Notes: generated by a model from the sequence alone, not told the origin. A stretch of 64,000 nt of DNA from Eledone cirrhosa (GCA_964016885.1 OZ024755.1:29016001-29080000), one strand, 5' to 3'; numbered from the stretch's first letter, positions 5,046 through 55,866 are shown. Program-made: numbers and translations.

Positions 5046-5240
5046 AACGGAAGAAATGTGGTAAGGAACCAGGTGGACCATAACGCACCAAAATACTCAA
5101 TACTTAGGGTAGTAGAGTGGGTAATAGGAACGAATAGGACGCCGACGGCTGAGCTCAAGCCGTTTTGTCGGCTAATTCCTGTCCAGAATTAGCCGTCGAA
5201 ACGGCTCGAGCTCAGCCGTTGGGGTCCTACTCGTTCCTAT
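5046..5240. mobile_element. Palindromic (TA)n-embedded element, family H, carrying a hammerhead 3' half
   Basis: A long minus-strand arm plus an inverted short arm. Contains GAAACGGCTCGAGCTCAGCCGT. (TA)n on both sides. Confidence 0.85.
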
Positions 5241-6375
5241 ATATATATATATATATATATATATATATATATATATATATATATATATATATATATATAT
5301 ATATATATATATATATATATATATATATATATATCACAAAATTGCTAATTTTCTTAGCAATAAAAGAGAAAAAGAGCATAATCTCAACAATGCAAACATC
5401 AATCGAGATTACGCCTTGTAAGTTTTAATTACATTTTGGCAGGGTTGTCACTCTTCTAGAAACCCAAACTCCGCGAATACCGGGAGACAACTGTATAGGT
5501 ATCAACTTACTACAATTGATAAAACAATTTTCATGAAATATTTACCTGACACCTTCTGCTATGATGTTTTCAATATTGTCTTTCCAAAACATTAAACAGT
5601 GTGGTGCCTTAGGTAGAACATTATGAGAGTACCTTAGATGTCAAGCACGATAAATCAACATTAGATTGTTTCTGTATATAAATAGATGGGAGTAATGAAT
5701 AAATTCAAATATTTTAGTTTCTGCATCAAAACAATAGAATTTTCTTTACCGGATCATACCGAAGTATATTTTGATAGCGCAAGTAATGTATTCTCATAGG
5801 GATTCCGAAAAGAAATCTGGGTAAACAAGCATTTTCATCCTCATCTATCTTGAATAATTTACTTGCCTTGTATCACAAGGAAGAAAACAAATTCCCTCTT
5901 GTATTTCATTCTATCGAGCCGGAGATAATTACAAAATTTGAAGAGTTATACAGCTAGAGAATGGTGAATCTGCAGATTAATATATTGGACATTGTTATGG
6001 GGGGAAACAATATTTGGTTTCATTATGTCAGTATTTGTATGAGTACAATATCAATTAATTCATTATGATTGATTACAAGTGCTATCAAACAAAATTCGGT
6101 GTATGTATACGGAGTATAACTATTCCACGTCTGAAATAATTATAGACAGAGGAAGTCAAAGTGAATACACATAACAGTTTATTATCCAATGATAATTATT
6201 TAATGATATTGCTGTTTAACGGACAGTAAACCATTGGTCGATGTGTAAATTTCTTATTTCTTATTGTTTAGCTCCAACTTAGTTTAAATCTACAAATCTA
6301 TAATCAGTGGCATTCCAACCATATCAATTTCATCATTTTGCCAAAAGTGTGGCTAATATTTTCTTGTATGATGTA

Positions 6376-6630
6376 CAGAGTGGGCTAGAATTCATGACTC
6401 GCTTGTTACATTTATTTCTTAACGTGCTTATTTTATTCTTATTATATTGTTTTAATTTATTATTTTATTTCTCAATATACTTAGCAGATTCTTTTATTAT
6501 TTTTTTCTAAATTTGATTAACCATGGCACATCCTTTGCTAAGCTTGGAAAAACGTGTTCAATTGTGTGAGATTATTTGTGTTAATAGATCTATAAATAAT
6601 CTAGTGAGTCATGAATTCCGACCCGCCCTG
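6376..6630. mobile_element. Tc1/mariner-type MITE
   Basis: TA-CAGAGTGGGCTAGAATTCATGACTC...GAGTCATGAATTCCGACCCGCCCTG-TA terminal inverted repeats. A related copy lies in opposite orientation at 33406-33627. Confidence 0.85.
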
Positions 6631-7422
6631 TATGAATGGAAACAAATATGACTGGTATTTCTAGTGAAACGTGCCGACACAGAGAGATATCCATCCCCAC
6701 TGTTTCACCCACTTCATAGTTTAGACTATTTGTCACCTATTTATCACCTATATGGATATTTCTAACATTTTATGTCTGTTCTAAGTATTTTTTACGTTGT
6801 AAGTGCAAGTAGTATTTAACACAAAATATAAACTTTCAGCACACAGATTTAGAATTGCACAACCAGAGCGTTACTGCAAGTCCAAATAATTACAGCCGTT
6901 CGTAGACATTCAAACTCTGTTTATTTAAAGAGTCAGGGAATCAAGTTAATCAAAGCTTTCGGATGACAATCATATTCGAAGTACAGCTCTCATAAAAAAA
7001 GAGGTCGTAATTGTGGGCAATGCTAATTCGTCCAGCCGACCATGTTATATTAATATGGACTCCCACATGGTTTAAAACTAAATATATTGAAAGAAGGAAA
7101 AAAATACCCTTCTATGGAAAATTGTAATATTTTCTTTTATACCAATTATAGAAGCTAGACACAAATTCATTGCAATTTTACGTGTCACATTTGTTTTACA
7201 TCAATTAGAATAGTCTTCTATGGCAGAATTATTGCATAGCGTCATAATTTGAAAATTGAAACTTGACAAACAATTCCAGACAGGTCGCCAACATTTTTCT
7301 ATGAATGGCTACTGAAATCAACTTGGCTTTTAACATTCATTAATTAACTAGACTTGTTACATCCCATTGCAATTCACCATTTTACCGTGTGTCTTTTAAG
7401 CTATATACCTTTATGAGTATGT

Positions 7423-7825
7423 ATGCATATAAGTATCTGTATATTTCGTAACGTGAGATTTGAACTGTATATATATATATATATATATATATATATATAT
7501 ATATATATATATATATATTTATTTATATGTATCTGTATGTGTGTATGTATTTATATATATATATATATGTATTTATATATACATATGTATTTATATATAT
7601 ATATATATATTTATATATATATATATATATATATATATATATATATATATATATATATATATATATATATATATGTGTATATATATATATATATATATAT
7701 ATATATATATATATATATATATATATATATATATATATATATATATATGTGTGTGTATATATATATATGTGTATTTATATGTATATATATATGTGTGTGT
7801 GTGTCTATATGTATGTTCTTGTGTG
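7423..7825. repeat. Long interrupted (TA)n/(TG)n microsatellite
   Basis: Directly visible. Confidence 0.97.
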
Positions 7826-8354
7826 TGATAGTTCGTTTGATTAAATTTGCGATAAAAGCATTGAATGGTTTCTTAGAAATTATACTCCTCAAAACAAATT
7901 CTGGAATATAGAGCGAATGATAAAGATAGTTCGCAGTGACAGAAACAGATAAAAATAGCAGCAAGAAACCACTTCAAATGACACCCAACCTTCATTGAAA
8001 CAATTCAGACATATTACATAATTCATTCTTAGATACAATATAGCTTGAAGGCGTAAGATTGATCTGCCAAATGATCTGCCAGAATTGGAATGAAACAATC
8101 CTGAAACCTCTTGCGTTAATGGACTAGAGTTCAATATTTCCGATGGTTGTTTTTCTAAAATTTAATTATGTTTCTGTTTTTTTTTTATTTTAGGCGATCG
8201 CAATGTACATATGTGGGCATGTATTTCATTACAATATTCGCTTGTGAAATCATATATTAAAATAACCCACTGGAAATTTATAGTAAACTGAATTGAAACT
8301 CAACAAATGCATGACCCTACCGAAGACAATATATATATATATATATATATATAT

Positions 8355-8421
8355 CCGTTCGGGATATAGCTGTCAAAACGACCGCAGCTCAGCCGTTGTC
8401 GGGGTCCGGACTATTTTCCTA
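8355..8421 (+). mobile_element. Family H short arm (degenerate)
   Basis: AGCTGTCAAAACGACCGCAGCTCAGCCG...GGGGTCC...TTTCCTAT between (TA)n tracts. Confidence 0.7.
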
Positions 8422-8590
8422 TATATATATATATATATATATATATATATATATATATATATATATATACATATATAAATTGAATAGAACTAAACGAAAT
8501 TTCATTTCTCACTCTTAGTACGGCACTTACTTAGGCTGGTCAGCCGTTAATATGCATAAGGAAAGTATATACTTTCAGACGTTCAACCAT

Positions 8591-8659
8591 CTGGCAGGAA
8601 GGTATACGATGCTGACGATAGCTAATAAGCTTGAAACTAGTACATCATTCCTGTGTCAG
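8591..8659 (+). ncRNA. Minimal type I hammerhead ribozyme, intact core
   Basis: GATG CTGACGA T-AGCT-AATA-AGCT-T GAAA CTAG TA CATC (8608-8646). Stem I can be extended by CAGGAA/TTCCTG. Stem III is the palindrome ACTAGT. Confidence 0.8.
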
Positions 8660-53790: not shown

Positions 53791-53959
53791 CATATATTAT
53801 TAAAAGTAATACCTTATAAACAATAACAATTAACTAATTAAACATAATCCCTAATTACAGGTAATACTTGATATCTAATATCTAATAAATAGCATTTCAC
53901 AATTGCGAATCCACAAAGAGGACTCAAAAACGCATATTTTCATATTATTGATTTGATCA

Positions 53960-54270
53960 GGGTTCAATGTCAAATGTGTCCATTCCCATTCTTCCTGTGC
54001 TAAGTGACCAGAGGCTAAACGCAAGCAAAGTTTCTGTGCCCTTTCTAGTACATCAATATTCTTCTTGTATGTACTCCAGCAGGAAGCGCCGATGATCTGG
54101 AACTGGCCCTACCATTTTGACTATGTTGTTCTCACGTTTTGGGGTGGTAAGCCCAGTAAAAGAAGTGTTGATGAAGTTAACTCTTTGGTTGGTTTTCTTT
54201 ACAAAGTTAGCCATTTGTTTCGGCAAGCTGATGATCCAAATAAAGTGAAACAACTATTCTCGGTATAGTG
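53960..54270 (-). mobile_element. Ancient CR1/L2-like LINE fragment
   Basis: VKKTNQRVNFI...MVGPV...ASCWSTYKKNIDVLEK across frameshifts. Confidence 0.55.
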
Positions 54271-54390
54271 AACTAACTGTTGTGGAACTACTTCTACAAA
54301 ACTCGTCCCATGGATTGAGTGCTTTAATACTACATATATAACCCTCCAGTGTACTACTATTATATATATGTATATATATATATATATATA

Positions 54391-54678
54391 TAATATAAGA
54401 TCAAAAGATGGTTAAAGGAGTTCCATATATTTTATTATGCGCATTTCAAAAACAAACATCATCATGCAATAATATTTGTGTTTTCATCTTTGTGTTTTCA
54501 TATTTGTATTATTGCATGATGATGTTTGTTTTTGAAATGCGCATAATAAAATATATGGAACTCCTTTAACCATCTTTTGATCTTATATTATGCATACTCC
54601 AGTCCCACAAACTGTAGAGTGCTTCTTATCCGATATCTGCATTGCTTTATTGTACTACAATAAAACTCACCTCCTACA
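54391..54678. mobile_element. Palindromic PLE-like insertion (84-bp arms) carrying a hammerhead 3' half
   Basis: Arms at 54391-54474 and 54507-54590. GAAA TGCGCA TA ATAAAATA matches the 3' half of the hammerheads at 24.7 and 60.15 kb. Confidence 0.8.
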
Positions 54679-54734
54679 TATATATATATATATATATATA
54701 TATATATATATATATATATATGTGTGTGTGTGTG

Positions 54735-54838
54735 GTCAGAGATGGTGTGTAAGATACCAGGTGGACCATAACCCACTAGTTCGGATCTAGCTGTCGAAAC
54801 GACCGGAGCTAAGCCGTCGGGGTCCTGAATCTGTTCAT
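54735..54838. mobile_element. Family H element (deleted, head-to-head)
   Basis: GGTGGACCATAAC followed by GCTGTCGAAACGACCGGAGCTAAGCCGTCGGGG. Confidence 0.8.
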
Positions 54839-55659
54839 ATATATATATATATATATATATATATATATATATATATATATATATAGAAGGGTGTCCGTAT
54901 AAACATAAGCTTCATTTCCCTTGTAATTAGCAGGAATAAACAATACACATTTCATTTTCACACTGAAAAATTATTATTTCTATTAATATTTGTTTTTAAT
55001 GTTACAAATATGTGTTTGAATTTCCTATTACTGTAATAGTCACGATTCTATTTCTTTTAAACAGATGACTAATAAATAAGACAAAACATCAAGTATTTTG
55101 TAACTACAAACAAATAAAGCATTTTCATATATTATTCCGCAATAAAACTATTGAAACATAGCAACAGTGGAATTAATTATCCAAATACGGATTTGTTACG
55201 ATGTTTGTTAATTAGGTACATAATATAATCACATTGATAGAAATATGTATATTTTTACTTACACGTCGAAACAAAGATGCATGTATGTATATATGTATGT
55301 TGGTATGTATGTATATGTATATATATGTTCTTCTGGTTTTATAATTTCACAAATTTTTGCCAATAGAGAGAGAGTCGGTTTCTAACATAGTTACAAGACT
55401 CTTTCATTGGAATTTACACATCAACTAGGTAGATATATATGCATGTCTGCATGCATGTCTAGATATGGATGTTATTGTATGTGTGGATGTGTATGATTTG
55501 AGTTGTATGTGTGCATGTGTATATTTTATTTTACATTACTCCGGAGTAACCAAACCAACCTGCGCACTTCGTCGAGTGCTCCAATCTGCACACTTAGGTG
55601 TTGGTATACAACCAACATATACTAAATATATATATATATATATATATATATATATATAT

Positions 55660-55866
55660 AACGAAGGAAATGTGGTAAGGAACCAGGTGGACCATAACGC
55701 ACCAAAGTACTCAATACTTAGGGTAGTAGAGTGGGTAATAGGAACAAGTAAGACCCCGACGGCTGAGCTCAAGCCGTTTCGACGGCTAATTCTGTACTCT
55801 AATTCCGTACAGAATTAGCCGTCGAAACGGCTTGAGCCCAGCCGTCGGGGTCTTACTTGTTCCTAT
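55660..55866. mobile_element. Family H palindromic element (subfamily A)
   Basis: Arms joined by an ~11-bp spacer near 55800, (TA)n on both sides. Confidence 0.88.

Follow-up and report, generated by a model that had tools for sequence, protein, structure and literature searches.

A 64,000-nt stretch of the Eledone cirrhosa genome (GCA_964016885.1 OZ024755.1:29016001-29080000), hereafter the window, carries twelve copies of family H, a fold-back repeat built on the 3' half of a hammerhead ribozyme core. As judged by protein motifs read by eye, the parent of family H is a Hydra-type Penelope-like element (PLE), of which family H represents the shortest, aborted insertions. We propose, with a probability of roughly two in three, that each of these stubs is the leader of the parent element copied twice from one RNA, starting at fixed sites 79 nt apart, with the two copies joined head-to-head. 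Throughout, coordinate 0 is the G of GAAA, which places the predicted hammerhead cut between +22 and +23; A is the tailed and B the tail-less arm of an insertion; the genome searched is that of an animal, 3.0 Gb in size; and tallies made by hand cover the first 100 listed rows in genome order rather than the whole genome.

The parent is visible through window copy 40478, which reaches further upstream and whose 30 best matches run into a common 3' untranslated region (UTR) and open reading frame (ORF). The parent unit is 3.54 kb long and consists of a leader with the hammerhead, a 719-aa ORF with reverse transcriptase (RT) and GIY-YIG parts, and a 3' UTR of ~1.3 kb. Two 10-kb loci, L061 and L071, present these parts in the order leader (pseudo-long terminal repeat, pLTR), ORF, ~1.3-kb 3' UTR and second leader, and an uninterrupted 719-aa frame lies inside a tandem array with a period of 3,543/3,542 nt. 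Copies of the leader-ORF junction number 304 genome-wide. This bears out the PLE origin that an earlier note on the window had assigned to family H; the upstream extension that it called for led to a PLE ORF and a 5' half-core, the latter being TTGAnAA and not the expected CTGAnGA.

Family H is abundant and its junctions are diverse. At least 12,957 fold-back junctions with exact flanks occur genome-wide, and the one-arm pattern is found at 39,043 places after a filter that removes about a quarter; reversed control patterns had no match in any genome pattern search. The 58 fold-back elements have 54 distinct junction strings, and repeated junctions sit on differing subfamily backgrounds (L134/L228 and L187/L223), which makes their recurrence mechanistic and not clonal. 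As the earlier note had maintained, junctions differ between copies and each palindrome arises anew per insertion, not by copying of a miniature inverted-repeat transposable element (MITE). A fixed fold-back MITE propagated as DNA would explain the terminal inverted arms, the TA flanks and some recurring junctions, one perfect palindrome being found at 6 of 50 listed places, but we give it almost no credence in view of the junction diversity, the changing subfamily backgrounds, the asymmetric arms and a sequence that is the leader of an RT-encoding element. Arm density is uneven: the window has 15 arms, the adjoining DNA 34 per 200 kb, and random samples (10-kb pieces from the four largest contigs) 8 per 400 kb; arms are ~8-fold denser around the window (contig C15) than in contigs C1-C4.

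The outer ends of the arms are fixed. A arms end at +121 (between CGTT and AT) and B arms at +42 (between TTCC and TAT); between these sites lies a 79-nt tail (40719..40797 in copy 40478, + strand, from priming site B, TTCCTAT, to priming site A, CGTTAT), which in full-length copies runs on into the ORF. A script scored 53 of the 58 fold-backs as one tailed plus one tail-less arm, and on inspection four of the remaining five combine a tailed arm with one that runs on into the ORF or with a decayed tail (three AA scores include two with a second arm entering the ORF, and two BB scores include one decayed tail). All 70 called partner arms end at +119 to +121, partners having been called by local alignment (88 of 89 loci, all but L298), with 11 read-through loci taken from a separate locus inspection. 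At least 13 of 20 kilobase-long loci likewise have an arm end at +42 opposite an arm end at +121. Both outer ends lie within (TA)n, with 2-3 nt of AT/TAT homology at the priming sites, in keeping with the TA microhomology previously suggested; because both ends are within (TA)n, a target-site duplication is unreadable. The short arm earlier said to stop at TTCCTAT does so, as TTCCTAT/TTTCAT against (TA)n, in 10 of the 12 window copies, but it is better described as the tail-less arm, which is often the longer one in long insertions. For a PLE in vitro, both target strands are cut and extended, and two RT start sites bound the tail (PMC11167929). By analogy, the +121 and +42 ends would be two such RT start sites.

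The inner ends point to a transcription start within the hammerhead itself. They were classed in 100 tail-less arms picked by their outer end only, in genome order, out of 8,514 genome-wide: 68 end at -22..-8 (modes -17, -12 and -18), 6 at exactly +23 and 11 in between, while 15 read through (the script scored 12 of these, and 3 more were halted by a 1-nt indel). With three 1-nt indels allowed, no end among the 100 falls between -23 and the read-through class, and by hand 8-9 of 100 one-arm pattern rows pass loop II. The start-zone ends lie 6-14 nt past the 3' strand of stem II, inside the loop. Since RT blocked by stem II would stop near -1, ends beyond the stem speak against the arrest in stem II that the earlier note had invoked, as does subfamily 3: its stem II is longer and its loop unrelated, yet it carries TTAGT at the same offset and has the same GT/AGT limit. 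The 5' limit coincides with TCAGT/TTAGT (-18) and TCATT (-22), which are initiator-like, and 30 nt before these motifs is a TATA-like box in the versions TATTTAAA and TATATAAA. In copy 40478 this putative promoter element is TATTTAAA at 40628..40635 (+ strand), which lies 30 nt before the main 5' boundary, and the candidate transcription starts, the A of TCATT (-22) and the A of TCAGT (-18), lie within loop II at 40654..40658 (+ strand). Contigs of four runs from one study, which may derive from the assembly's own sample and were not counted as independent, have a depth step and loose ends at 40654/40658 and 40718, as well as a cut-site joint. An internal promoter of the initiator type has been described for the D. 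virilis Penelope pLTR (PMC2377424).

The base that follows these ends is consistent with a capped RNA. Both arms reach -18 at 3,556 junctions, and the templated A is the next cDNA base in 61 of 100 rows, against 24 for C, 12 for G and 3 for T; when six ambiguous one-base spacers are subtracted, C:G:T is 19:7:2. An extra C on both arms was counted by hand at 7 of 50 junctions reaching -18. It is established that other RTs add a C opposite a cap. On this pattern, the main inner end is likely to be a capped transcription start inside loop II. Several points weigh against this reading. Both the start site and the cap are deduced from genomic DNA sequence. With 61 of 100 ends continuing with the templated A, the cap signal is an excess and not a rule, and the extra C could alternatively come from RT end-addition or templated insertion. 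Genome-wide, the base after AGT is as often G or T (761) as C (782; G in the RNA, where the parent has T), although most of the G class repeats the adjacent GAATT/GAAAT. Subfamily 3 is without the TATA-like box, and the 100-arm sample covers two subfamilies in the first 60 Mb of one contig, with a filter on one fixed base. In subfamily 3, the one without the box, there is also a possible second, upstream start near -29 (CCAGT ends, cDNA sense). We discarded the idea that TYAG marks a 3' splice site or trans-splicing, there being no constant upstream sequence at the boundary.

A second class of inner ends falls at the predicted ribozyme cut. Downstream of stem III, junctions occur at 499 and 483 places (two pairs of subfamilies). 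By hand, both arms end at or within 3 nt of the GACCCC/GGGGTC boundary, which coincides with the bond after GUC, in 23 of 50 listed junctions of the first subfamily pair and in 14 of 50 of the second (one or two of them doubtful); among the other junctions of the first pair, 15 of 50 have the stem III repeat at their centre and 7 of 50 have CCCC-GAC-GGGG, the rest being centred elsewhere. Cut-class junctions mostly gain one or a few A/T, with C at ~4 of 31 ends (hand). In the 100-arm sample, the 6 ends at +23 stand beside 1 at +22 and none at +19..+21, and 2 of 30 ORF-bearing copies end at +20/+23. We infer that the +23 ends represent the 5'-OH end produced when a complete U3-A8 hammerhead cleaves itself. 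Complete ribozymes would then be likely to cleave in vivo, with the 3' product still used, and the counts suggest that ~6 of 21 complete-ribozyme templates were cut when copied.

Both classes of end might instead reflect two primings followed by RT pauses at the apical loop II and the base of stem III, or host-nuclease cuts. The cut class lies one base 3' of stem III, which makes pausing at the helix a rival; the reliance on DNA noted above applies to start and cut ends alike; and for an anole element, in the sections of PMC11167929 consulted, no reads ended at the cut and cleavage was unneeded in vitro. We nevertheless hold this explanation to be unlikely. The 5' boundary tracks the TYAGT motif despite different stems, non-templated C is enriched at -19 whereas additions at +23 are mostly A/T, the +23 ends are sharply placed, and paired arms stop at the same class, which would be unexpected from pauses on one uniform RNA.

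The two arms of an insertion tend to be concordant. Cut-class arms pair with cut-class arms in 5 of 5 cases, against 0 of 65 for the others (Fisher p 8e-8), and read-through partners accompany 10 of 11 read-through arms against 0 of 57 start-zone arms (p 4e-11); 4 of 15 read-through arms have no partner. Paired arms also have common subfamily alleles, sometimes with a private change (L192). The tail-less arm exceeds the tailed arm in L061, L063-L066, L252 and L259, and arm starts are often kilobases apart. Either arm can be the longer by kilobases, which a single self-copying cDNA could not generally produce; taken together with the concordance, this makes the arms likely to be two cDNAs made on one RNA. 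The junctions between them have 0-4 nt of microhomology, added bases and short templated insertions. Some observations pull the other way: window copy 40478 is discordant, the sole such pair observed, with B at the cut and A reaching -177; one or two pairs (L226, L231) differ at a subfamily-type site and may be mixed; and two RNAs from one source are indistinguishable from one RNA.

The earlier note had favoured a single cDNA with inverted second-strand priming, and self-priming has been proposed for head-to-head PLE palindromes (PMC3846280). Here, one cDNA would stall in stem II and fold back, and the second strand would be copied until TA microhomology at TTCCTAT allowed joining to the target. 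Concordant short arms follow trivially from such a scheme, and many junctions do resemble a 1-2 bp snap-back with templated insertions. It is quite improbable, however, given the loci in which the tail-less arm is longer and the junctions that link positions kilobases apart; moreover, GACCCC-x-GGGGTC junctions have no pairing for a snap-back, and the start-zone ends lie past the stem, in the loop, at a fixed offset. Central deletion of longer inverted insertions could also leave short palindromes: long perfect palindromes are unstable, and of the cut-region junctions those centred on the stem III repeat would suit this origin, while the 7 of 50 at CCCC-GAC-GGGG fit a CG-microhomology deletion. 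We judge this very improbable, since deletion gives no reason for the sharp limits at -18/-22 and +23 or for the added G, and since solo and unequal arms in the window (copies 8355, 25959 and 54735) have the same 5' limit.

In the two-priming mechanism that we favour, transcription from the leader would begin within loop II, and with such a start the 5' ribozyme of a monomer transcript would be a half-ribozyme, unable to cut. The protein would bind near the leader-ORF junction and cut both strands of a (TA)n target, RT would be primed at +121 and +42 on a single RNA, and both cDNAs would run off the RNA 5' end. That end would be the cap for ~7 in 10 tail-less arms, giving family H, and the ribozyme-cut end for ~6 in 100, the template then being a downstream pLTR or tandem-array transcript; use of the downstream leader would allow read-through into the 3' UTR, in ~15 in 100. 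The cDNA ends would be joined by RT template jumping or host end-joining. Among ORF-junction copies, 17 of 30 pass the upstream start (4 of one array) and 6 of 30 stop there; a retrovirus-like strong-stop jump is unneeded, since these data follow from priming inside arrays or at a pLTR further downstream. The stubs themselves, without the TATA-like box and the 5' half-core, are likely inert. A wider generalization, on which we are evenly divided, is that a start inside its own hammerhead disables the 5' ribozyme while downstream copies cleave in vivo, that a protein dimer copies the RNA twice, and that this is the general origin of the PLE inverted pLTR and tail.

Copy 40478 contains a complete type I hammerhead at 40609..40703 (+ strand), as predicted from covariation, fold and sequence. 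Stem I is ACCCC/GGGGT, the core U3-G-A-n-A8-A9 lies at 40614-40620 and GAAA at 40676-40679, stem II is long-looped, and the predicted cut is between 40698 and 40699. It had been claimed that no copy has an upstream CTGAnGA; the literal motif is indeed absent, but this copy has a U3-A8 5' half, CCCC-TTGATAA-G, at 40610-40621. The parent core, CCCC-TTGAnAA-G, has the same U3-A8 form, with position 7 variable (T, A, G). Stem III, described before as a long palindrome, has 5 bp and a 9-nt loop that holds a 6-nt palindrome. Three stems around the core, a 3-8 pair and GAAA/UH are all predicted. The minimum-energy fold of copy 40478 gives a three-way junction, and in a structure alignment of 8 copies from 4-5 subfamilies, 90% of the cells are paired and three pairs of stem II change on both sides; none of 500 shuffles attains its hammerhead pairing or covariation score, although kinship alone can produce such scores. 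Against the hammerhead stand the fold stability of copy 40478, which does not exceed that of shuffles (z -0.12), the different minimum-energy folds adopted by two other subfamily copies, and the missing U3-A8 pair in 3 of the 8 aligned copies. An Rfam search at E<=1 returned no hammerhead family and only microsatellite-driven miRNA noise. Candidate CTGAnGA parents, 71 matches upstream of the half-core, were rejected, the 30 inspected being chance junction sequences. In L162, L203 and L205 the core is mismatched, with C3 facing A8, and these loci possibly represent a lineage with an inactive ribozyme.

A U3-A8 core has been described in the Schistosoma Cercyon PLEs (PMC4209133). The hammerhead studied here shares with it U3-A8 covariation, the G10.1-C11.1 pair, a palindromic loop 3 and the occurrence of motif pairs on opposite strands, those of Cercyon being 100-700 bp apart. 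In contrast to Cercyon motifs, which are minimal and without a real stem III, its stem III has 5 bp, and its loop II, ~35 nt long, houses the putative promoter.

As for the protein, Pfam and PDB searches with the 719-aa sequence and two related frames gave no match. Homologues number 2,018 at E<=1e-30 among 7,998 scored candidates, and the best of them carries PF01541 in precomputed domains, which we take to be GIY-YIG. By eye, the 719-aa frame has DKT, YRDD and AYIG motifs. In HSDKTGNLY, DKG is changed to DKT, as in the Hydra clade (PMC8557442); the linker CNCPDRSIC fits CxCX5C, CNLC and CKH in the endonuclease (EN) fit CxxC and CxH, and CCHH is absent, again by eye. RWR stands where the Hydra clade has RWK (L265, L080), and insertions target (TA)n as that clade does. 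The element also has pLTRs from partial tandems, inverted 5' copies, a one-sided tail and a hammerhead in the pLTR, which are features of EN-containing (EN+) Penelope-like elements. Its EN is C-terminal, unlike the N-terminal EN of Naiad/Chlamys, and the Neptune clade was rejected since the CX2-5CxxC linker, CCHH and DKG of that clade are not present. Hydra-clade elements are described as having a single ORF with RT and C-terminal GIY-YIG, (TA)n insertion and a pLTR hammerhead (PMC8557442), all of which are found here together with DKT, an RW-basic N-terminal motif and the linker and EN cysteines. The unit differs from Hydra members, which are generally <3 kb with canonical hammerheads (PMC8557442), in its 3.54-kb length with a ~1.3-kb 3' UTR, its U3-A8 hammerhead with long loop II, its 79-nt tail, its tens of thousands of minimal inverted stubs and its RWR in place of RWK.

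Related and rearranged units were also observed. A related family at L080:757-2895 has a 713-aa open frame with 55% protein identity, and its leader carries a short canonical-type hammerhead remnant without the long U3-A8 form. Head-to-tail arrays of 3-4 full 3.53-3.54-kb units lie in L265, at G000:C1:437.200-437.211 Mb and at G000:C2:320.551-320.559 Mb. Short tandem units of ~257 and ~299 nt, in L189 (G000:C1:27.0097 Mb) and at G000:C2:356.030-356.031 Mb, span the region from the putative start through the opening ~120 nt of the ORF. They may result from repeated template jumps or represent a minimal unit akin to a retrozyme.

Within the window, all twelve copies listed by the earlier note are present, and its GAAA/GGGGTC half-core consensus stands, the family core being GCCGTC-GAAA-CGGC..GAGCTC..GCCG-TC-GGGGTC; instead of the two subfamilies recognized then, there are at least four to five sequence variants. 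The note placed the meeting point of the arms 10-25 nt upstream of GAAA in most copies. This holds for six, whose palindromes are joined 12-22 nt upstream, while four have head-to-head arms with other breakpoints and two are solo arms. Among the six, copy 5046 has its A arm at 5045..5178 (-), which begins 12 nt before GAAA and extends through the whole tail, and its B arm at 5181..5240 (+), from the GT of the AGT start motif (-17) to TTCCTAT. In copy 20790, the A arm (20787..20929, -, subfamily 3) has its 5' end at -17 and the B arm (20930..20992, +) at -18. The A arm of copy 40248 (40248..40405, -) has its 5' end exactly at AGT (-18), with a non-templated G before it, and the B arm stub (40409..40425, +) likewise begins with G+AGT. 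The arms of copy 44560 (A, 44559..44683, -, subfamily 3; B, 44678..44735, +) are joined at an AGATCT palindrome (-13). Both arms of copy 48978 have 5' ends at -22 (A, 48977..49120, -; B, 49119..49183, +), with a 2-nt overlap. In copy 55660, the A arm (55659..55798, -) ends precisely at AGT (-18) with one non-templated base added, and the B arm (55807..55866, +) starts from -17 behind a short templated insertion (55800-55806).

Breakpoints differ in the other four head-to-head copies. Copy 30082 has a B arm of subfamily 3 (30078..30132, -) and an A arm (30146..30245, +) that begins at +7, behind a duplicated junction. Copy 39984 pairs a decayed B arm (39983..40027, -) with an A arm reduced to the tail (40028..40090, +). 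The B arm of copy 40478 (40476..40496, -) stops at +22, where the ribozyme is predicted to cut, whereas its partner reads through: the A arm (40499..40797, +) runs from -177 to the tail end and contains the complete hammerhead. In copy 54735, the A arm is tail only (54735..54776, -) and the B arm (54777..54840, +) begins at -19/-18. Of the solo arms, 8355 (B, 8357..8422, +, subfamily 3) begins at the -17 equivalent, and 25959 (A, 25958..26076, +) begins at the A of AGT (-18), its 3' end being interrupted by another insertion.

The window holds further features. A decayed C-terminal remnant of another Hydra-type PLE ORF (WFNP and CKC..C motifs) lies at 19073-19954. At 24417-24781, 122-nt inverted arms, one carrying TCTGATGAA, flank a 121-nt spacer beside (TA)n; we read this as another, unrelated PLE-like insertion, again head-to-head, whose core is of the C3-G8 form. 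A SINE-like common repeat at 37740-38414 forms a head-to-head pair with 193-nt inverted arms, 289 nt between them and (TA)n bounding both, and was possibly mobilised by the same machinery. Tandem-repeat and inverted-repeat scans of the window gave microsatellite context only.

Parts of this picture have precedents. L1 twin priming combines two primings, from the sides of a staggered cut, on one RNA into an inversion; its segments are non-overlapping and its second primer site is variable, whereas here the starts are fixed and the arms overlap, which would require strand displacement. Inverted 5'-truncated pLTRs with an optional one-sided tail and palindromic junctions are published for EN+ PLEs (PMC3846280, PMC8557442), with self-priming on an antisense template as the explanation in PMC3846280. 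The family H stubs resemble them in the head-to-head 5' copy, the palindromic junctions and the tail at one end only, and differ in a 79-nt tail instead of 30-40 bp and in arms that both end at fixed RNA landmarks and agree. With the anole Poseidon PAc in vitro (PMC11167929) they share two internal RT starts bounding a tail, with both strands cut and extended, and a hammerhead upstream of the RT starts; the PAc protein is predicted to be a dimer. PAc starts have no target homology, whereas here both sites abut AT/TAT, and no RNA ends were seen at the PAc ribozyme cut, in contrast to our genomic junctions at the predicted cut; the sections consulted leave the inverted arm unexplained. Octopus Penelope families are listed without hammerhead analysis in the passages of PMC13282606 consulted, and 10.64898/2026.07.22.740005 deals with tandem retrozymes. 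By the definition in the latter, a non-LTR retrozyme was rejected for family H, whose stubs are head-to-head and without a complete motif. Inverted ends and tails are thus already known; for a start inside a PLE hammerhead, cut junctions or arm concordance, our literature search, made largely from paper listings and open to correction by subscription papers and supplements, found no report.

The origin of PLE inverted ends and tails, and hammerhead cutting in vivo, are called open questions in PMC8557442 and PMC11167929. Family H offers ~13,000 independent natural end products at base-pair resolution. They speak against self-priming on an antisense template, the published idea, and place a putative transcription start, a ribozyme cut and two priming sites at exact positions that can be tested. 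Descriptors limited to CUGAnGA and short loops overlook a large hammerhead family of this kind. If the wider generalization given above is true, the hundreds of scissile-bond junctions would amount to the first record on the scale of a genome that PLE hammerheads cleave RNAs which are then inserted.

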